Origin: Vulcanimicrobiota bacterium
Lineage (GTDB): Bacteria > Vulcanimicrobiota > Vulcanimicrobiia > Eremiobacterales > Eremiobacteraceae
Direction of reading: 5' to 3'
Length of the DNA stretch: 64,000 nt
Assembly: GCA_963812135.1 (NCBI GenBank)
Contig: CAWETU010000001.1
Span: 64,001-128,000, forward strand
In this document: positions 48,994 to 58,214 of the stretch, in pieces
Numbering within the stretch: the first letter of the stretch is position 1
Layout of the letters: every line of letters begins with the position of its first letter
Position numbers and translations under genes: made by a program
Notes under the pieces: model-generated
Seen by the model: the letters and a program-made list of their open reading frames with translations, nothing else
Database searches by the model: none
Told to the model about the DNA's origin: nothing

Positions 48994-49854
48994 CTAGAGC
49001 TGTGTAGTGAATGCCTGTTCGGCGTGGTATGACGAGCGGACGAGCGGGCCCGATACCACCTGATGATAACCCATTGGCTTGATAGCTTGCGCGAACCAGC
49101 GGAACTTGTCGGGGGCGACGAATTCCACCACTTGGAGATGCCGCTTGGTCGGCTGCAGGTATTGCCCTAACGTCAAGATGTCGACGCCCACAGCGCGCAG
49201 ATCGCGCGCCGCTTGCAGCACGTCTTCGTCGGTCTCACCGAGCCCCAGCATGATGCCCGATTTCGTGAACTTGTCGGGGCGCATGCGTTTCGCGTTTGCG
49301 AGCACGCCGAGCGATTGGTCGTAGCCGCAGCGGCGATCGCGCACGTGCGGCGTTAGCGAGCGCGTGGTCTCGATGTTGTGCGCGAACACATCGGGCTCGG
49401 CGTCGATCACCTTCTTGAGCGCGTCCACGTCGCCGCGATAGTCCGAGGTGAGCACTTCGACTTTGACGTGCGGGGTCCGACGCCGGATTGCGCGGATCGC
49501 ATCGGCCATCTGCTGCGCGCCGCCGTCGGGCAGGTCGTCGCGGTCGACGCAGGTGATCACCGCGTAGCTCAGCCCGAGATCTTCGATCGATTGTGCGAGC
49601 TTGAACGCCTCGAGCGGATCCAGTTCATACGGTTTGCCGGTCTTGACGTTGCAGAATCGGCAACCGCGAGTGCACGTATCGCCGAGGATCATGAACGTGG
49701 CGGTGCCGACGCCCCAGCACTCGGCGATGTTGGGGCACATCGCTTCCTGGCAGACCGTGTGCAGCCCGCGGTCCTTGACGATGCCATGCAGCTTGACGTA
49801 GTTGTCGCCGGCCGGCAATTTGACTTTGAGCCACTCGGGCTTGCGTGCGATCAT
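48994..49854 (-). CDS. lipA: Lipoyl synthase
   Basis: 'TVCQEAMCPNIAECW', 'CTRGCRFC', 'LVRSSYHA'. Confidence 0.97.
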   Translation of the reverse strand: MIARKPEWLKVKLPAGDNYVKLHGIVKDRGLHTVCQEAMCPNIAECWGVGTATFMILGDTCTRGCRFCNVKTGKPYELDPLEAFKLAQSIEDLGLSYAVITCVDRDDLPDGGAQQMADAIRAIRRRTPHVKVEVLTSDYRGDVDALKKVIDAEPDVFAHNIETTRSLTPHVRDRRCGYDQSLGVLANAKRMRPDKFTKSGIMLGLGETDEDVLQAARDLRAVGVDILTLGQYLQPTKRHLQVVEFVAPDKFRWFAQAIKPMGYHQVVSGPLVRSSYHAEQAFTTQL

Positions 49855-50534
49855 GCCGAGCTTCGCTCGGCGTCGACACCCGAGCTGCGCTCGGGTACTA
49901 CATCTAATTCAAAAATTGCGATCATTGCGGCCAGCAGCGGAGACTTCGCCTCTGCAACGCTGACCTCCCGGCCGAGCTCGCGCGCGATCGAGGTGACGGC
50001 GACGCCCGGCATGCCGCACGGATTGATCAACTGAAAATACGAGAGGTCGGTGCACACGTCCAGCGCGAGGCCGTGATAGGTCACGCCGGCGCGTACTGCC
50101 GCGCCGATCGACGCGATCTTCGCGCCGTGGACGAAGGCGCCCGCATGATCGGGGCGCTGCTCCCCCGTGATGCCGAACTGCGCGAGCGCCTGGTTGATGC
50201 TGCGCTCCATCTTGCGGACGAAATTTTGGACTTCGCGCAATCGGGGCAGCTTGAAGATCGGATACGCCACGAGTTGGCCGGGGCCGTGATACGTGAGATC
50301 GCCGCCGCGCTCGATCGCATAGTACTCCACACCGCGCCGGCGCAACTCATCGACTGAGACAAGTAGATTCTGGCCTTTGCCGGACTTCCCCATCGTGAGC
50401 ACCGGATCGTGCTCGCAGAACAGCAGCGTGTCGGGCCGTGCGTCGGCGACTCGTTCGGCGTGCATGCGCAGCTGAAGATCCCATGCGGCTTTGTAACCGA
50501 TGCGGCCGAGATCTTCGAAGACTGCGTTCGTCAC
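49851..50534 (-). CDS. lipB: Lipoyl(octanoyl) transferase
   Basis: 'EHDPV.TMG', 'RGGDLTYHGPGQLV.YPI', 'KIASIG', 'INPCG'. Confidence 0.95.
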   Translation of the reverse strand: MTNAVFEDLGRIGYKAAWDLQLRMHAERVADARPDTLLFCEHDPVLTMGKSGKGQNLLVSVDELRRRGVEYYAIERGGDLTYHGPGQLVAYPIFKLPRLREVQNFVRKMERSINQALAQFGITGEQRPDHAGAFVHGAKIASIGAAVRAGVTYHGLALDVCTDLSYFQLINPCGMPGVAVTSIARELGREVSVAEAKSPLLAAMIAIFELDVVPERSSGVDAERSSA

Positions 50535-51958
50535 GTCTTTGCGGGAACGGGTGCCGGCGTGTTGGCGATGTGGATCGCCCGCCCGTGCAGCACCTCGGCG
50601 GCCTCCATGATGGGTTCTGAGAACGTGGGATGCGGATGGATGGTGAGACCGATGTCTTCCGTGGTGGCGCCCATCTCGATCGCCAGCGCCCCTTCGGCCA
50701 CCATCGCCTCGGCCATCGGCGAGAAGATGCCCATGCCGAGCACCAGATCGGTCTTCTTGTCTGCGATGATCTTGACCATGCCGTCGGTCAAACCGATCGT
50801 GCGCGCGCGCCCGAGCGCGGCGAGACGGAACTTGCCGACCGCGATCTCGTAACCCGCAGCTTGGGCCTGCTCCTCGGACATACCGACGGTGGCGACTTGC
50901 GGATCGGTGTACACGCAGTTCGGCATGGCGAGCGGGTCGTAAGCGGATGGCAGACCCGCGATCACCTCGGCCGCCACGACGCCTTCTTTCATGGCTTTGT
51001 GCGCTAGCAACGGCGGGCCGGTGACGTCGCCGACCGCATAGATGTTAGCGATATTCGTCTGGCGCCGCTCGTCGACGGGGATGAAACCGCGCTCCACGTT
51101 CACGCCGACGCGCTCGAGCGCCAACTTGTCGGTGCGCGGCTTGCGGCCGACGGCGACAAGCACTTTCTCGAAGTCCATCGGCTCGGTGATCTCGCCTTCG
51201 AACGTGACGCGCACGCGCTTGCCGATCTCTTGCAAACGCACGGCCTTTGTCTTGAGGAAGATGTTGATGCCTTGTTTCTGCTTGAGCGTCCGCACGAGCA
51301 GATTGGTTATCTCGATATCGGTATCGGCCAGCGCGCGGTCGGCCAGCTCCACCAAGGTCACTTCGGCACCCAGCCGCTTGTAGATCGTGGCGAACTCGAG
51401 GCCTATCACACCGCAGCCCAAGATCAGAATGCTCTTCGGGAGCTCGTTGAGCGCCACGGCGTCGTCGGAATTGAGGATGTTGATGCTGTTGCGCTCGAAG
51501 CCGGGCAGCGCTACGGGCTCAGACCCGGTGGCGATGACGAACGCATCGGCGCTCAGATCTTCGGCGCGTCCGTCTTGCTTCTTGACGCGCACGCGCTTCG
51601 TGTCGGTGAACTCCACGTCGCCGGTCATGTAGTCGACCTTGTTCACCTTGAACAGCGTGTTGATGCCGCTGACCAGATCGTCGATCATCTTCGACTTCCA
51701 CTGGTTGAGCTTGCTGAGGTTGATGGCCGGCGGGCCGCCGAAGTCGATGCCCATGGCGGACGCCTCGCGCGCCGCGGCGATGACCTCGCCGACGTGCAGC
51801 AGCGCCTTGCTCGGCATGCAGCCGACATTGAGGCAGACGCCGCCCAGGCGCTCGCGCTCGATGCACAACACGCTCTTCTTGAGCTGCGCAAGGCGGATGG
51901 CAGCGGTGTAACCGCCGGGGCCGCCGCCGATGACGATCGCGTCGTACTTGGTCGGCAT
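50531..51958 (-). CDS. lpdA: Dihydrolipoyl dehydrogenase (E3)
   Basis: 'GGGPGGY.AAIR', 'GGVCLNVGCMPSK', 'HPHPTFSE'. Confidence 0.96.
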   Translation of the reverse strand: MPTKYDAIVIGGGPGGYTAAIRLAQLKKSVLCIERERLGGVCLNVGCMPSKALLHVGEVIAAAREASAMGIDFGGPPAINLSKLNQWKSKMIDDLVSGINTLFKVNKVDYMTGDVEFTDTKRVRVKKQDGRAEDLSADAFVIATGSEPVALPGFERNSINILNSDDAVALNELPKSILILGCGVIGLEFATIYKRLGAEVTLVELADRALADTDIEITNLLVRTLKQKQGINIFLKTKAVRLQEIGKRVRVTFEGEITEPMDFEKVLVAVGRKPRTDKLALERVGVNVERGFIPVDERRQTNIANIYAVGDVTGPPLLAHKAMKEGVVAAEVIAGLPSAYDPLAMPNCVYTDPQVATVGMSEEQAQAAGYEIAVGKFRLAALGRARTIGLTDGMVKIIADKKTDLVLGMGIFSPMAEAMVAEGALAIEMGATTEDIGLTIHPHPTFSEPIMEAAEVLHGRAIHIANTPAPVPAKT

Positions 51959-51962
51959 GATG

Positions 51963-53276
51963 CTAGCCCTCCATCAACATGACGTCGGGCGCGCCGAGCG
52001 CAGTCGCGACATCTTTGGCGAACTGCGCGGCGACCGCGCCGTCGACGACGCGATGGTCGAACGAAACCGAGAGATACGTCATCTGGCGCACGACGATCTG
52101 GCCATCGCGCACCACCGGTCGAGGCTGGATCGAGTGCGTGCCGAGGATGCCGACCTCCGGCCAGTTGATGACCGGGAACGTGAACAGGCCGCCGACCGAG
52201 CCGACGTTGGTGATCGTGAACGTGCCGGCGCTGATCTCCTCGTGAGAGAGCTTGCCGGCGCGCGCTTTCTCTGCTAGCTCGGCGATCTCGATCGCGAGCT
52301 CGAAGATCGTCTTGTGGTCGGCCTGATGGATGACGGGCACCACGAGGCCGGCATCGGTATTGGCCGCGATGCCGATGTTGTAGTCTTTCTTGAGGATGAT
52401 CTCGTGCTTCTCGTCATCGAGTGACGCGTTCATGAACGGGTGGCGCTTGAGCGCGTAACACGCCGCTTTGACGAAGAACGGCAGATACGTGAGCTTGATG
52501 CCGCGCTCGGCGGCAGCTTCTTTGGCGCGCGCTCGCATCGCCACGAGCTCGGTGACATCGGCCTCGTCGACGTGCAACGTGTGCGCTGCGGTCTGTTTGC
52601 TGTGCACCATGTGCTCGGCGATGACGCGACGCAGGCCGCGCAGCGGCACGCGCTCGGTCTCGCCGCTCGGCGCCGGGAGCGCGCGAGCCGGAGTCGACGG
52701 CCGAGTAGGCTCGGCCGCTACCGACGTCGCGCCCGCGGCGACGCGCTCGATGTCCTCGCGGCGGATCCGTCCACCTTCGCCCGACCCGCGCACATTGTTC
52801 AGATCGACGCCCTTTTCGCGCGCGAACTTGCGCACAGCAGGCGCGGCCATCGGCCGGCCCTGCGGTCCGAGGATCGCGCTCTCGGATGGCGCGACGGTGC
52901 CCGCCTGTCCGTTGCCGGTCTTGGCCTTCGAGGGTTTGGCGGTATCTACTGGAGTTTTCGGCTGAGCAAGCTCAGCCGCTACAGGCGCTGCAGCTGCCGG
53001 CTGTGCTTTGCTTGCGCCATGATCGGCGAGCGTCTCGCCCTCTTTGCCGAAGATCGCGATCGGCTTGCCGATCGGCACCACTTCGCCTTCCTTGGCGACC
53101 TGCTTGAGCAAGATGCCTGCAAACGGCGATGGGATCTCCACCGTCACCTTGTCGGTCATGACTTCGACGAGCGGCTGGTCCTCTTTGACGTGGTCGCCTT
53201 CATTGACGAGCCACTTGACGATTTCGCCTTCGATGACCGACTCGGCGAGTTCGGGCATCTCGTATTCGACCGGCAT
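51963..53276 (-). CDS. Dihydrolipoamide acyltransferase (E2)
   Basis: Lipoyl domain 'EVMTDKV', E3-binding 'AAPAVRK.ARE', catalytic 'FDHRVVDG'. Confidence 0.94.
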   Translation of the reverse strand: MPVEYEMPELAESVIEGEIVKWLVNEGDHVKEDQPLVEVMTDKVTVEIPSPFAGILLKQVAKEGEVVPIGKPIAIFGKEGETLADHGASKAQPAAAAPVAAELAQPKTPVDTAKPSKAKTGNGQAGTVAPSESAILGPQGRPMAAPAVRKFAREKGVDLNNVRGSGEGGRIRREDIERVAAGATSVAAEPTRPSTPARALPAPSGETERVPLRGLRRVIAEHMVHSKQTAAHTLHVDEADVTELVAMRARAKEAAAERGIKLTYLPFFVKAACYALKRHPFMNASLDDEKHEIILKKDYNIGIAANTDAGLVVPVIHQADHKTIFELAIEIAELAEKARAGKLSHEEISAGTFTITNVGSVGGLFTFPVINWPEVGILGTHSIQPRPVVRDGQIVVRQMTYLSVSFDHRVVDGAVAAQFAKDVATALGAPDVMLMEG

Positions 53277-53297
53277 TGCTTTCCTCGATCCGCGAGT

Positions 53298-54296
53298 TTA
53301 GAAGTTGAGCGTTTTCTTGATGCCGCGCACCACGCGTTCGGCGCTTGGCATGTACGCCTTCTCAAGCGCGTACGGGAACGGCGTATCCCAGCCGGTGACG
53401 CGCACGATGGGGCCCTCGAGGTGCTCGATCGCGTTCTCGGCGAGAAACGCGGAGATCTCACCCATGTAGCCGCCGATGCGCGGCGCTTCTTGGAGCAAGA
53501 CGACGTGACCGGTCTTGCCGACCGACGCGAGGATGGCTTCGGTGTCGTAGGGCTGCAGCGTACGCAAGTCGATCACTTCGACCTCCACGCCGTCTTTCTC
53601 CATCGCCGTCGCGGCTTCCAGCGCGACCGGGATCATCGCGCCGTACGCGATGACGGTGACGTGTTTGCCTTCGCGCGCGATCGCCGCCTTGCCGAGCGGT
53701 ACTTCGTACGGCCCTTCGGGCAACTCGCTCTTGACCGCACGATAGATCTTCTTCGGCTCCATGAAGAGCACGGGGTCGTTGTCGCGTATCGACGCGATGA
53801 GCAGCCCCTTCGCATCATACGGATTGCTCGGCACGACGACTTTGATGCCGGGCGTGGCCACGTAGTACGCCTCGGGCGACTGCGAGTGATAACTGCCGCC
53901 ACGCACGCCGCCGCCATACGGCGATCGCACGACCATCGGCACTTGGAATTCGCCGGCGGAACGATAGCGCAGTTTCGCGGCCTCGGAGACGAGCATGTCG
54001 AAGCCCGGGTACAGGAAGTCGATGAACTGGATCTCGGCGATCGGACGTAGTCCGTAAAGCGCCATCCCGATGCCCGCGCCGATGATGCCAAGCTCGGCGA
54101 GCGGCGTGTCGATGACGCGCTCCTTGCCGAACATGTCGATCAGCCCTTCGGTGACCAGGAAGACGCCGCCGCGCGGGCCGATATCCTCGCCCAGCGTCAC
54201 GACGTTCTCGTCGCGCGTCATCTCATCGATGAGCGCGGAACGGATGGCTTGCACCATCGTATACGTCTGTTTTTTCTCGGCTTGAACCGTTGCCAT
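53298..54296 (-). CDS. 2-oxoacid dehydrogenase E1 beta subunit (pyruvate or branched-chain)
   Basis: 'GEDIG..GGVF.VT', 'DTPLAE.GI.G', 'EIQF.DF', 'HSQSPE'. Confidence 0.93.
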   Translation of the reverse strand: MATVQAEKKQTYTMVQAIRSALIDEMTRDENVVTLGEDIGPRGGVFLVTEGLIDMFGKERVIDTPLAELGIIGAGIGMALYGLRPIAEIQFIDFLYPGFDMLVSEAAKLRYRSAGEFQVPMVVRSPYGGGVRGGSYHSQSPEAYYVATPGIKVVVPSNPYDAKGLLIASIRDNDPVLFMEPKKIYRAVKSELPEGPYEVPLGKAAIAREGKHVTVIAYGAMIPVALEAATAMEKDGVEVEVIDLRTLQPYDTEAILASVGKTGHVVLLQEAPRIGGYMGEISAFLAENAIEHLEGPIVRVTGWDTPFPYALEKAYMPSAERVVRGIKKTLNF

Positions 54297-54311
54297 GATC
54301 TCGCGCGCCTC

Positions 54312-55412
54312 CTAGGACACGCCAAGCTCGGCGGCGAGCTCTGCGCGCTCCGCGTCGAGATGGGGGGTGCGTTTTTCGTAGACATAGTCGAACACGCTGA
54401 GCGGCTCCGGCACTGCGCTTGCCTCGGCTTCGGCGAACGCGGCCGCGACTTCGGCTTTGACTTCTTCGAGCAGCTTCTGCTCCTTCGCGTCATCCCACAC
54501 TTTCTTCCCGATGAGGAAGGTGCGGAAGCGCGTGATCGGATCGCGTTGCGTGCGCCACATCTCGAGCTCGCCCTTGGGACGATAGCGTGTGTCGTCGTCG
54601 GCGCTCGAATGCGGGCCATAGCGGTAGGTGTACGCTTCGATCAGACTCGGACCGCCGCCGGCGCGCGCTTTGTCGGCGCACAGCTTGGTGACCGCGTAGA
54701 CTGCCAAGATGTCGTTGCCGTCGACGAAGTAGCCGTCCATGCCGTACGCACGCGCCTTTTCGGCGATCGTCTTGGTGTGCGTCTGCTCTTCGAGTCGCAC
54801 CGAGATCGCGTACTGGTTGTTCTGACAGAAGAACAGCACCGGCGAGCCGTAGACCGCGGCGAAGTTCAGACCGACGTGGAAATCGCCTTCGCTGGTGGCG
54901 CCGTCTCCGAAATACGTGATGGTGAGGTCCTTGGTCTTCCTATAGCGCTGCGCCATCGCAGTGCCGACCGCTTCGGTGATCTTGTTGCCGACCGTGGACG
55001 ACGGCGGCACGATGTGCAGCTCTTTGCTGCCGCTGCCGTGCGGCATCATGCGGCCTTGCGTGGGATCAAGCATGCGGCCCAGCACGTGTCCGAACCACTG
55101 CGACGCTTTGAGACCTTTGACGAGTTGGCTGCCCTGCGAGCGGTGGTCGCCATACATCCAGTCGGGCTTGTTCAACACGAGCGCGCTGCCGACTTGCGAT
55201 GCCTCCTGGCCCGCGACTTGCGCGTAGAAACCCGCGCGGCCTTGGCGGACGAGGATGTAGCCGCGATCGTCGACCGCACGCACGAAGACCATCCACCGAT
55301 ACATGACGAGCAACTGCTCGGTGGTGAGGTCGAGCGAAGCGACGTCGCCGGCTTGCTTGCCGTCGTATTCGAGGAACTTGATCGGTTTGTCGGTGAAAGG
55401 CTTGATTTCCAT
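54312..55412 (-). CDS. 2-oxoacid dehydrogenase E1 alpha subunit (pyruvate or branched-chain)
   Basis: 'GQEA', TPP motif 'FGDGATSEGDFH...NFA...QNNQYAIS', 'YRYGPHSSADD..RYR'. Confidence 0.93.
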   Translation of the reverse strand: MEIKPFTDKPIKFLEYDGKQAGDVASLDLTTEQLLVMYRWMVFVRAVDDRGYILVRQGRAGFYAQVAGQEASQVGSALVLNKPDWMYGDHRSQGSQLVKGLKASQWFGHVLGRMLDPTQGRMMPHGSGSKELHIVPPSSTVGNKITEAVGTAMAQRYRKTKDLTITYFGDGATSEGDFHVGLNFAAVYGSPVLFFCQNNQYAISVRLEEQTHTKTIAEKARAYGMDGYFVDGNDILAVYAVTKLCADKARAGGGPSLIEAYTYRYGPHSSADDDTRYRPKGELEMWRTQRDPITRFRTFLIGKKVWDDAKEQKLLEEVKAEVAAAFAEAEASAVPEPLSVFDYVYEKRTPHLDAERAELAAELGVS

Positions 55413-55576
55413 GCGAGAAGGGCTGTCCTCCGAAACGCTATTATGTCGAGTTCCGCCTTCTTTGGATATCGGCGATTCCCTCCGCCAGTCGGAAGTTCTC
55501 GACGGAGAGGTTGGGCTCAAGAACGCGGCATATCCCTCTGTTGAATTATCGTTTTCGCTGAGCGGGAGAGCTTCGC

Positions 55577-56050
55577 ATGATGAGCGTCGTTTGTGTGCTC
55601 CAACTGCTGCTGTTGTTGGCCACGAACCCGACCACGCAGCAGTTTCATCCGACATCGAGCGCCCGTTACGTCATCGCGACCAACGGCGCCGCGATGGGTG
55701 GGTTCTCCGAGGTGAGCGGGTTGACCACCGACACGGATGTGGCGGAGTATCGTGAGGGGTCCGACACGCAAACCCACACGAAATCTCTGACCGGATTGCA
55801 CAAGTACACAAGCATCACGTTGAAGCGCGGCACGGTCAGCAACTCCGGATTCTACGATTGGTATAAGAACAAGGGGCTGATGGATGTCTCCCTCAAGGCG
55901 GTCGCGCCCAGCGGCCAGCCGCTCACCTATCACTTGCGCGGCTGCAAGCCGACGAAGTACACCGGGCCGCCACTAACCGGCAGCGGTTCGGGCGACGTCG
56001 CGATCGAAGAACTCGTCTTGAGCTGCGAGTCCATCACGCTCGTCAAGTAA
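55577..56050 (+). CDS. Phage tail tube protein (T4 gp19-like / eCIS tube family) with hydrophobic N-terminal leader
   Basis: 'GGFSEVSGL......EYREG......L.GL.KY..ITLKRG......FYDW' and 'P.KYTGP.L.....VAIEEL.L..E'; leader 'MMSVVCVLQLLLLLA'. Confidence 0.85.
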   Translation: MMSVVCVLQLLLLLATNPTTQQFHPTSSARYVIATNGAAMGGFSEVSGLTTDTDVAEYREGSDTQTHTKSLTGLHKYTSITLKRGTVSNSGFYDWYKNKGLMDVSLKAVAPSGQPLTYHLRGCKPTKYTGPPLTGSGSGDVAIEELVLSCESITLVK

Positions 56051-56065
56051 CCAGGAGGAATCGTC

Positions 56066-56719
56066 ATCAAACTCGCGCCGTTCAGTTTCAATAAGATCTC
56101 GCTCGGCCTGTATCGCAACACGATCAGCGCCCCGCTCGTGCCGGCTCTGCAAGGCGATCTGTTGCGGGAACTGCATCGCTCCTATCCGTCGCTCACCCAG
56201 ATCCCGAACGGCGTTTTGTTCTCCGATCCCGCGCAAGGACGGGCGCTGATCGTCGATCAGACCCACGTCGAGGCGTCCGAGAACAGTCCCCACGTCGCGC
56301 CGGCTGCGCTCGAACGGTTGCAGAGCGACGTCCGCGTCGCGGCGCAAACGGTTGACTTCGCCCCGCCGTATCGCGTGCGTGTCGAGGGGACGGGCACGAT
56401 CCAAGCGCTCGAGGGCGTGAATCCGGCACAAGTGCTACTCGCGCACGCACCGCCAGAGCCGCATTGGGATGAGATCGGCGGCCGCTGCACCCATGCGGCC
56501 GTACGATATTTGTTCACCGATGAGTCAGGCGTGCAGCGTGACGTCCACATCGAACCGCTCTTCGCGCAGGCCGACAAGTTCTACGTGATGGCCGTCTCGA
56601 TGAACGGCCAGCAAGGCGTGCCCACGCTCGATGCGGCGATGGCGCAAGCGCACGACGAGATCGACATCATCGAGCGGTTGAGCAACCGCATCGTGTCTGA
56701 TCTGGTCGGCGAGGACTAG
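56066..56719 (+). CDS. Hypothetical protein (possible ATC start at 56066; first conventional start GTG at 56138)
   Basis: Frame is open from 56051 to 56719; AGGAGG lies 7 nt before an in-frame ATC. Confidence 0.6.
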   Translation: MKLAPFSFNKISLGLYRNTISAPLVPALQGDLLRELHRSYPSLTQIPNGVLFSDPAQGRALIVDQTHVEASENSPHVAPAALERLQSDVRVAAQTVDFAPPYRVRVEGTGTIQALEGVNPAQVLLAHAPPEPHWDEIGGRCTHAAVRYLFTDESGVQRDVHIEPLFAQADKFYVMAVSMNGQQGVPTLDAAMAQAHDEIDIIERLSNRIVSDLVGED

Positions 56720-56729
56720 AAGCCCGGGA

Positions 56730-58214
56730 TCAGACTTTGAACAGCTCTATGGGTTTCGTGCCGGTGTACATGACGACGCCCTTCGTCTCGGTGTAGAGGT
56801 CGAGCGTCTGCATCGCCAGCTCGCGGCCGAAGCCGGACTGCTTGTAGCCGCCGAACGGCACGCCCGGGATGATGGAGATCGGCGAGTTGATCGCGACGCC
56901 GCCCGACTTGAGGCCGCTCGCGACGCGCTGCGCGCGCCCCGCATCGCGGGTCCACACCGACGCGGCTAATCCGTAGACCGAGTCGTTCGCCATCGCCAGC
57001 GCTTGGGCTTCGTCTTTGAATGTCGTGACGACGGCGACCGGACCGAAGATCTCTTCTTGCGCGACGCGCATCGAGTTCGTCACCTTGTCGAGCACGGTCG
57101 GCATCAGGAAATTGCCGGCTGCAAGCGCGCCGTCGGGGCGCGTGCCGCCGCATGCGACGGTCGCGCCTTCTTGCGCGCCGATGCCGACATAGCCCTCGAT
57201 CTTCTCGAGCTGCTTCCTTGAGATGATAGCGCCGACGTGTGTCGACGGGTCGAGTGGATCGCCGACCTTGAGCGCTTTGGCCTTGGCCACGAACTTGGCG
57301 ATGAAATCGTCATACACGCGCTCGTGCAAGAGGATGCGCGAACGGGCGTCGCACGATTGGCCCGCATTATAGAAGATAGCATGCAGCGCGCCTGCGACCG
57401 CTGCGTCGACGTCGGCGTCCTCGAACACCAGGTTCGGCGATTTGCCGCCGAGCTCGAGCGTCAAGCGCTTGATCGTGCCCGCCGCCAGCTCCATGATGGT
57501 GCGTCCGGTCGACGTCTCGCCGGTGAAGGCGACCTTGTCGACACCCGGGTGCGCGGCGAGGTGTGCGCCGATCGTGGCGCCGGGGCCCGGCAACACGTTG
57601 ACGACGCCCGGAGGACAACCCGCTTCTAAACAGATCTGGCCGAGTAGAATCGCGGTGATCGGCGTGGGGCTGGCGGGTTTGAGCACGATCGTGCAGCCCG
57701 CCGCCAGCGCCGGCGCCACTTTCCATGCCGCCATCAGCAGCGGGTAGTTCCACGGCACGATCTGCGCGCAGACGCCGACCGGCTCTTTGAGCGTATAATT
57801 GAAGAAATTGGGCGGCGATGCGAGCGTGTTGCCGCCGATCTTGGTGACCGCGCCGCCGTAGAACTCAAAATCCTCGATGACTTGGCCGATCTCGGCCTTT
57901 GCGCCCGAGATCGTCTTGCCGCTGTTGAGCACTTCGATCCGCGCCAGCTCGTCGAGCCGCTCGCCGATGAGCGCGGCGATCTTGAAGAGCACGCGCGCGC
58001 GCCGCGCGGGCGCCATCGTGCTCCATTTGCCTTCAAGCGCCTTGCGGGCCGCGGCCACCGCAGCGTCCGCGTCGTGGATGCCGGCCGAGGCGACGTCAGC
58101 GAGCTTCTCGTTCGTCGCGGGATTGATCGCGGCGAACGTCGCGCCGCTTTGCGCCTTGACCGATTCGCCGTTGATGAGCAGGTCGTACGTCTTTTGTTCG
58201 ACGACTGTGGCCAC
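56730..58214 (-). CDS. Aldehyde dehydrogenase
   Basis: 'PWNYPLLM', 'FTGE', 'LELGGKSP', 'AGQSC', 'EEIFGP', 'PFGGYKQSG'. Confidence 0.92.
   Translation of the reverse strand: MATVVEQKTYDLLINGESVKAQSGATFAAINPATNEKLADVASAGIHDADAAVAAARKALEGKWSTMAPARRARVLFKIAALIGERLDELARIEVLNSGKTISGAKAEIGQVIEDFEFYGGAVTKIGGNTLASPPNFFNYTLKEPVGVCAQIVPWNYPLLMAAWKVAPALAAGCTIVLKPASPTPITAILLGQICLEAGCPPGVVNVLPGPGATIGAHLAAHPGVDKVAFTGETSTGRTIMELAAGTIKRLTLELGGKSPNLVFEDADVDAAVAGALHAIFYNAGQSCDARSRILLHERVYDDFIAKFVAKAKALKVGDPLDPSTHVGAIISRKQLEKIEGYVGIGAQEGATVACGGTRPDGALAAGNFLMPTVLDKVTNSMRVAQEEIFGPVAVVTTFKDEAQALAMANDSVYGLAASVWTRDAGRAQRVASGLKSGGVAINSPISIIPGVPFGGYKQSGFGRELAMQTLDLYTETKGVVMYTGTKPIELFKV

Follow-up and report, generated by a model that had tools for sequence, protein, structure and literature searches.

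A contractile injection system-type tube protein with a conserved hydrophobic leader, probably exported or outward anchored, in an Eremiobacterota genome lacking sheath and baseplate genes

The tube proteins of phage tails, extracellular contractile injection systems (eCISs) and type VI secretion systems (T6SSs) are textbook cytoplasmic parts, meaningful only together with a sheath and a baseplate, and Hcp of the T6SS is an example of a tube protein that doubles as a ring-shaped carrier for other proteins. The tubes of eCISs and other contractile injection systems (CISs), such as Pvc1, Afp1, Alg1 and Anabaena All3324 (PDB 6j0b, 6rao, 7adz and 7b5h), have no leader, are synthesized in the cytoplasm and have their genes beside those for sheath and baseplate. 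For the Pvc1 tube, one report describes a conserved beta-loop intercalation (PMC12546770); another describes SalCIS as associated with the inner membrane, and the Sec signal mentioned there belongs to an accessory membrane protein and not to the tube (PMC13266070). Here we describe a tube-protein gene at positions 55577..56050 (+) of a 64,000-nucleotide stretch (positions 64,001 to 128,000 of contig CAWETU010000001.1, assembly GCA_963812135.1) from a Vulcanimicrobiota bacterium of soil, which the organism names on relatives of the neighboring gene assign to Candidatus Eremiobacterota (Eremiobacterota below). We refer to the whole stretch as the window and to the window's own genome as G000. 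In contrast to the eCIS and CIS tubes, the window protein carries a leader and a linker and is encoded in a genome without a contractile machine. On balance, its sequence favors an exported or outward-anchored protein of tube fold that works without such a machine.

The open reading frame (ORF) consists of 157 codons and a TAA stop, and its extent, as given in a preliminary description of the window, was confirmed, as were all of the tube motifs listed there. The gp19/eCIS tube identity proposed in that description was borne out by hidden Markov model searches: both PF06841 (Phage_T4_gp19; 82.1 bits against a cut-off of 28.2, residues 29-153 on profile positions 3-133 of 134) and TIGR02241 (CIS-type inner tube; 74.8 bits against 62.4) scored above their cut-offs. 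The NCBIfam equivalogs CIS1_fam (35.3 versus 220 bits) and CIS5_fam (51 versus 260 bits) were not reached. A protein atlas returned PF06841 and nothing further, PHROGs gave weak tail-tube matches for both tube proteins of the genome (the second is described below), and PADLOC had no match for the tube gene or for its downstream partner gene.

The solved proteins closest to a profile of the clade described below are CIS inner tubes (9r9h, AlgoCIS 7adz, Anabaena tCIS 7b5h, Pvc1 6j0b and Afp1 6rao). An AlphaFold2 (AF2) model calculated from 150 homologues (mean predicted local distance difference test score [pLDDT], 78.5; core, ∼90) has the beta-sandwich with one flanking helix that is typical of tubes. 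The top 10 structures retrieved with it by Foldseek are all CIS tube proteins (E values of 5e-9 to 2e-7), including Pvc1 (6j0b_a, 5e-9), PlPVC1, AlgoCIS, Anabaena tCIS, Afp1 and the Streptomyces CIS tube, followed by phage tubes and Hcp. With the four eCIS and CIS tubes named above, which belong to the same family of hidden Markov models, the window protein shares this fold (E values of 5e-9 to 4e-8; template modeling [TM] score, ∼0.6) and the core motifs. The tubes of phage T4 (gp19), R-type pyocins and myophages (3j9q, 5w5e, 5w5f and 8kee; 1e-4 to 2e-3) belong to the same fold superfamily; they are virion components and far more distant in sequence. Hcp (TssD; 6bdc, 8gra and 7yw0; ∼5e-5 to 3e-4) has a related tube fold but, unlike the window protein, falls into another Pfam family, is leaderless and depends on a T6SS. 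We thus conclude that the window gene is a true homologue of gp19/CIS inner tubes.

The genome around it (98.4% complete, 6 contigs) contains no sheath (PF04984, PF17482), gp25 (PF04965), Baseplate_J (PF04865) or spike base (PF04717) match, in profile searches that did give matches in control genomes. The earlier statement that no sheath, baseplate or spike is recognizable in the window therefore extends, through these five Pfam searches, to nearly the complete genome. Within the phylum, we distinguish the window's own family (f1) from a sister family (f2). Of the 301 phylum genomes covered, PF06841 was matched in 45 and a sheath profile in 36. Sheath genes are present in 34 of the 207 f2 genomes, with the tube gene directly after the sheath gene, and those f2 tubes whose N termini were read (L011, L012 and L014) are leaderless. 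A PF04984 scan of 22 f1 genomes revealed no sheath in any of them, though six carry tube genes; the whole family thus lacks a sheath. Nor was an eCIS or prophage locus missing only its tube, a possibility raised in the preliminary description, found in the genome or in the 22 f1 genomes.

The f1 tubes are of two kinds, a leaderless type A, present in all six genomes, and a leader-bearing type, present only in G000 and in two genomes of the same genus, G005 and G006. Type A tubes are akin to the sheath-adjacent tubes of f2 and are 68-86% identical in the six sheath-less genomes, which span two genera, so that tube proteins are evidently useful there. The window genome accordingly has a second, leaderless tube gene outside the window (G000:C1:2151580-2151990; L004:1566-2024; PF06841, 145 bits), whose neighbors are conserved among close kin only and which looks like a tube gene kept after loss of the machine. 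The window gene had been called an orphan; this stands insofar as machine genes are absent genome-wide, but it is not the sole tube gene. Broken tube genes were seen elsewhere in the Eremiobacterota, in G281 (L232:5725-6522) and G303 (G303:C1:20572-20826), with one reading frame lost after ∼90 residues and one tube match interrupted by an in-frame TAG.

The most conspicuous difference from canonical tubes, which start just before the first strand, is the presence of ∼24 extra N-terminal residues with a hydrophobic core. Tube homology begins at approximately residue 25, so that residues 1-15, which include no lysine (K), arginine (R), aspartate or glutamate, and residues 16-28 fall outside the domain. 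As the preliminary description had proposed, the translation reads as ∼15 hydrophobic residues (the leader, 55577..55621 [+]; a low-confidence helix at residues 5-13 in the AF2 model) and a polar linker (55622..55660 [+]), which opens with a conserved [AT]-x-N-P-[TSN] motif and is disordered in the model. Among database proteins (given P-numbers here), the 15 nearest ones (50-96% identity, 153-158 residues) likewise have an uncharged hydrophobic start followed by small-x-N-P-T/S, whereas the next-closest group (42-44% identity, 146 residues) opens at the canonical first strand without a leader. The orthologues in G005 and G006 (170 and 169 residues) have the same type of leader, again with [AT]xNP after the hydrophobic stretch, and a proline-rich linker. 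In a tree of tube homologues built on core columns only, with the leader region taken out, the 19 leader-bearing sequences nearest the window form one clade with 99% local support, within which the leader is conserved by type and not by sequence.

It could be argued that the gene is a decaying CIS or prophage relic, whose 5′ extension is fortuitously hydrophobic and possibly untranslated, with the true start at a TTG codon. Such codons do occur at positions 13 and 14 in the window, the orthologues in G005 and G006 are without several canonical motifs and reach only 43-46 bits with PF06841, and G281 and G303 show that tube genes do break in this phylum. Yet a Shine-Dalgarno-like element, GGGAGAG (55564..55570 [+], read from the sequence), precedes the conserved ATG ATG start by 6 nucleotides, and in G005 the tube ATG overlaps the stop codon of the upstream gene. 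ATG, GTG or TTG codons ahead of the domain are limited to codons 1, 2 and 8 in G005 and to codons 1, 5 and 9 in G006, so that translation must include most of the leader in both. Intact leader-bearing ORFs are moreover found in all 19 sequences, down to ∼40% identity. The preliminary description had allowed for homologues that start at a downstream Met with no conserved leader; the 19-member clade instead keeps it, and together with the start codons of G005 and G006 and the element before the ATG this rules out a start-codon artifact. The leader is thus translated and conserved across the clade.

The pattern of substitutions is also difficult to reconcile with decay, even if the overall ratio of nonsynonymous to synonymous substitution rates (dN/dS) is fairly high. 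With the syntenic metagenome contig L075 as reference, tube identity is 83% and dN/dS is 0.55, versus 95% and 0.08 for the partner, 98% and 0.03 for the E1 gene upstream and 98% and 0.035 for the aldehyde dehydrogenase gene; the tube evolves ∼8 times faster than its neighbors. Compared with G005, tube identity is ∼40-45%, against 75% and 90% for the compared genes. The excess relative to L075 is local. Codons 50-75 (55724..55801 [+]; pLDDT, 64-73) show 12.5 nonsynonymous and 1.5 synonymous differences (dN/dS, 3.2), and codons 76-157 show 11.2 and 12.8, respectively (ratio, 0.23; Fisher p = 0.02 for the contrast); the leader has a dN/dS of 0.32. Between G005 and G006, the overall value is 0.32; the mature part alone has 0.17 and the leader 0.80, and every change in the leader preserves hydrophobicity. 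All of these figures come from single sequence pairs, and the value for the loop comes from 14 differences in one pair, which counts against the case for export. In an alignment of six window-subclade proteins, variable positions cluster at residues 52-74, a region that is nearly invariant in a canonical group of equal divergence, and residues 50-75 as a whole are conserved in eCIS and CIS tubes. Within the same loop, soil run X6 contains an ∼89% identical relative with compensating one-base indels (55765-55785). The gene is therefore under purifying selection overall, with an excess of amino acid changes in the loop of codons 50-75, and such a combination of purifying selection with a single fast-changing loop indicates that it is maintained and not decaying. 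With dN/dS values of 0.17-0.23 outside the loop, and with the leader translated, we regard a relic as highly unlikely. The hypervariability itself suggests that the loop binds a fast-changing partner, which would be an external one if the protein is exported.

A further peculiarity of the window protein relative to eCIS and CIS tubes is an extra, invariant cysteine, Cys123 (codon, 55943..55945 [+]; invariant in the 16-row alignment A2), and the clade is also 5 to 8 residues shorter directly after the helix than canonical tubes. A possible disulfide partner of Cys123 is Cys150 (56024..56026 [+]), which is common in other tubes too. In the 150-row alignment, both cysteines occur together in 21 of the 43 rows with a leader and in only 4 of the remaining 107, one of these four being a leader protein slightly under the threshold; relatedness inflates the counts of both cysteines and leaders, which lessens their value as support for export. 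Two classical-signal clades (P0133/P0168 and P0138/P0180) have the pair as well, and P0132 has neither cysteine. From these distributions, we infer that Cys123 and Cys150 would form a disulfide bond outside the cytoplasm.

Tube proteins with export-type N termini are not restricted to this clade. A HMMER scan of 1.84 billion representatives yielded 1845 matches. Among 266 collected homologues, 45 had a leader, taken here as 12 or more additional N-terminal residues that include a hydrophobic core; many of the 45 show K/R n-regions, AXA-type cleavage sites or lipoboxes. A profile of eleven classical-signal tubes matched 5261 proteins at E values of ≤1e-10, and among the best 120 of these, 33 have signals, 31 of them with K/R. 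Leader-bearing matches were favored in these sets, retrieved as they were with leader-containing queries, which tempers what their number can say for export. Examples are the metagenome proteins P0133, P0183, P0204 and P0212. Like the window protein, such proteins carry PF06841 behind an export-type N terminus; unlike the window clade, they combine K/R n-regions with AXA or lipobox sites, and most of them keep the canonical loop after the helix. In the core-only tree, they fall into several clusters in other parts than the window clade, and a single origin of leaders is neither forced nor excluded (13 changes; starred branches force 1).

Genomic examples were found in two phyla. In the Eremiobacterota genome G161 (family f2, not among the sheath-positive genomes), a 190-residue tube with a textbook signal (L230:5902-6471 [-]) has as neighbors a lactonase-like protein that also bears a signal and a DUF2092 "predicted periplasmic protein." This tube derives from the type A lineage and has lost, by deletion, the hairpin region that follows the first conserved motif, and its gene overlaps the start of the lactonase-like gene. 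In the Acidobacteriota, for which 351 genomes were scanned and 20 tube loci examined (two genomes flagged as unpublished were left out of the latter), two loci (in G506 and G353) have signal-bearing tubes. They lie among genes for a di-haem peroxidase, a BNR protein, other unknown proteins with signals and a second protein that weakly resembles a tube; besides the G161 tube, the genomic cases include L207:7995-8510 and L218:7989-8468 (G506). In none of the four genomic cases in these three genomes did the 6-8 kb around the tube contain a sheath or baseplate gene; the neighbors include predicted periplasmic or secreted proteins, and G161, G506 and G353 all gave no PF04984 match. The G506 cluster (L218:5105-8468) comprises four small proteins with signal peptides, two of them tube-like (PF06841 at 70 bits and at a subthreshold 23 bits), with a type IV pilin-like gene 3 kb upstream.

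The 63 tube ORFs on 50 viral-contig loci all lack a leader, and a scan of genome and metagenome contigs with the clade alignment recovered mostly canonical eCIS tube genes; leaders were present only in L075, L101, L107 and L108, all of them closely related to the window or to G005/G006. A leader in L072 proved to result from an over-extended ORF with its real start at the canonical position. Our literature searches turned up no publication that deals with orphan or Sec-exported tubes or with gp19 proteins bearing classical signals. By analogy, the existence of independent gp19 lineages with classical signals and without machines makes an extracytoplasmic role of the window tube plausible.

Taken together, these data best fit a domesticated CIS/gp19-type inner-tube protein that became detached from its contractile machine and whose canonical N terminus was replaced by a short hydrophobic leader. 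This leader may act as a Sec/SRP (signal recognition particle)-type signal or as a signal anchor, and would thus carry the 135-residue tube domain across the cytoplasmic membrane or anchor it on the outer face of that membrane. The domain may form rings or tubes there, as envisaged in the preliminary description. The genome holds an Omp85/BamA gene whose product has a classical, arginine-containing signal peptide, so that the organism is probably diderm. At residues 3-15, with a best 11-residue Kyte-Doolittle mean of 3.13, the hydrophobic core of the leader lies within the usual length of a signal h-region (about 7-15 residues); a conserved N-P follows it, and some clade members have better candidates for cleavage sites than the window protein, e.g., V-H-A before A in P0006. 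A lipoprotein (signal peptidase II substrate) can be ruled out, as no lipobox L-[AS]-[GA]-C follows the h-region; Cys6 precedes this region, after V-V, and is not present in other subclades.

Several properties of the protein nevertheless weigh against export. The lack of a basic n-region, already remarked upon in the preliminary description, extends to all 19 clade members, whereas the BamA signal of the same organism has several basic n-region residues. A clear AXA site is absent, and L-L-A before T16 comes nearest to one. With 13-15 residues, the core is short for a transmembrane anchor. The N-side is free of positive charge and the first charged residue past the core is R30, so that the positive-inside rule gives no preference for the N-in orientation. 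A scan of the genome for the leader motif matched only this gene and one dubious ORF, so that the motif is not a lineage-wide sorting signal. Finally, Cys150 alone occurs in 25 of 107 leaderless, presumably cytoplasmic tubes.

Given the absence of a basic n-region and of a clear AXA site, a cleaved signal, an uncleaved outward anchor and a reverse signal anchor all fit the leader. In the last case, the N terminus would face outward and the tube domain would remain cytoplasmic, tethered by the polar or proline-rich linker to the inner face of the membrane as a nucleation or docking module. An uncharged N-side followed by R30 suits this N-out/C-in topology at least as well as N-in under the positive-inside rule, since none of the 19 clade members has K/R before the core. 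Membrane-attached CISs are also known, the thylakoid-anchored tCIS 7b5h is among the closest structures, and SalCIS is described as inner-membrane associated (PMC13266070). For an anchor of this kind, the short core is again a difficulty, and the genome offers no machine as a docking target. Furthermore, the cysteine pair gained by the clade recurs in clades with textbook cleavable signals, and related lineages with classical Sec or lipoprotein signals put the same fold outside the cytoplasm. We therefore consider a reverse anchor unlikely in comparison with the export or outward anchoring that we favor.

The surroundings of the gene are mostly metabolic. Upstream lies a divergent gene for 2-oxoacid dehydrogenase E1 alpha (54312..55412 [-]; PF00676, 301 bits), for which a start at 55412, aligned in relatives, is likelier than one at 55655; the ORF 54312-55655 over-extends by 81 codons into the start of the tube gene. 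Beyond it, an ordinary row of 2-oxoacid dehydrogenase genes (49851-55412 [-]) appears to continue, from translations alone, with E1 beta, E2, E3 and a LipB-like octanoyltransferase. On the other side, a convergent aldehyde dehydrogenase-like ORF (56730..58214 [-]) is 98% identical in L075. The preliminary description had called the neighbors metabolic; this is correct for E1 alpha and for the aldehyde dehydrogenase-like ORF but not for the direct downstream neighbor, a conserved gene of 217 codons (56066..56719 [+]). This partner gene begins 15 nucleotides past the tube stop codon and 7 nucleotides after its own Shine-Dalgarno sequence, AGGAGG (56053..56058 [+], read from the sequence). Its protein conservation reaches exactly to an I/V start codon in 23 orthologous loci (ATC in the window, ATC or ATT conserved, GTG in a few relatives), so that it seems to start at a noncanonical codon.

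Of 31 family genomes, 23 have the partner, among them G016, which is flagged as unpublished; the tube gene precedes it in 3 of these loci and is missing from 20. A sequence search retrieved 59 homologues, of which the only named organism is Candidatus Eremiobacteraeota. Searches of Pfam, NCBIfam, PADLOC and PHROGs gave no match, and the protein atlas labels it "hypothetical." Its AF2 model (pLDDT, 95) is a two-lobed alpha/beta structure with weak TBP-like similarity (TM score, ∼0.4; root mean square deviation, ∼9 Å). Since the partner looks cytoplasmic and is mostly without a tube, the operon gives no functional clue, a further point that does not help the case for export.

Homology of the intergenic DNA to that of the tube-less genomes G001 and G002 extends as far as the GGGAG ahead of the window tube, after which these genomes pass directly to the start of the partner; G001 retains CCAGGAGG, the element that in the window comes after the stop codon of the tube. 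A loose end at 55568 in soil run X1 comes from a relative whose locus lacks the tube. These junctions indicate that the tube is a clean insertion or deletion directly upstream of the partner, and in the window it uses the ribosome-binding site that serves the partner in G001 and G002. A joint between 55692 and 56261 in soil run X6 was not trusted, as it has only 21 letters on one side. A promoter and terminator scan of the locus found nothing. One 153-nucleotide contig of a soil metatranscriptome is identical to 55704-55854, a weak hint that the tube gene is expressed; the contig may be DNA carry-over in the RNA library.

One might then suspect that the window protein is part of an unrecognized, strongly diverged or reduced tail-like assembly, for instance together with the second, leaderless tube or with the partner protein. 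Two tube genes in one genome, the retention of the leaderless one in six sheath-less genomes, and the adjacency of tube and partner even where the upstream gene differs (E1 in G000, acyl-CoA synthetase in G005 and G006) would speak for it. Such an assembly would have to do without the five hallmark families, with tube genes that lie 2 Mb apart and with a partner that lacks a tube gene at 20 of its 23 loci and whose fold is TBP-like, not tail-like; PADLOC detects nothing, and the PHROGs matches stop at the weak ones for the tubes. We consider it distinctly improbable.

If the protein is indeed exported, it may conceivably serve as a periplasmic mimic of tail tubes, although we would give this more specific role only a small chance. 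A free subunit or ring in the envelope would dock on the open end of the tube of an incoming contractile tail (of a phage, tailocin or eCIS, or of a competitor's T6SS) and block delivery. CIS loci are common in the sister family f2 of the same phylum. The loop of residues 50-75 would then be the contact surface, presumably corresponding by its position to the beta-loop that intercalates with the next ring, and this would account for an excess of amino acid changes confined to the loop. Were this so, signal-bearing gp19 proteins in machine-less genomes would be a widespread and hitherto undescribed class of envelope defense.

More generally, the window gene and those related to it suggest repeated release of the tube fold from its machine and its fitting with an export-type N terminus, and that such tubes are kept under selection in sheath-less genomes of at least two phyla. 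The local excess of amino acid changes suggests an interaction surface that is open to direct testing, and the small mature domain of ∼135 residues should be practical to express. If export is confirmed, one of the most widespread viral folds would have a new cellular role, and the annotation "phage tail protein" would no longer be automatic evidence of a prophage or an eCIS.

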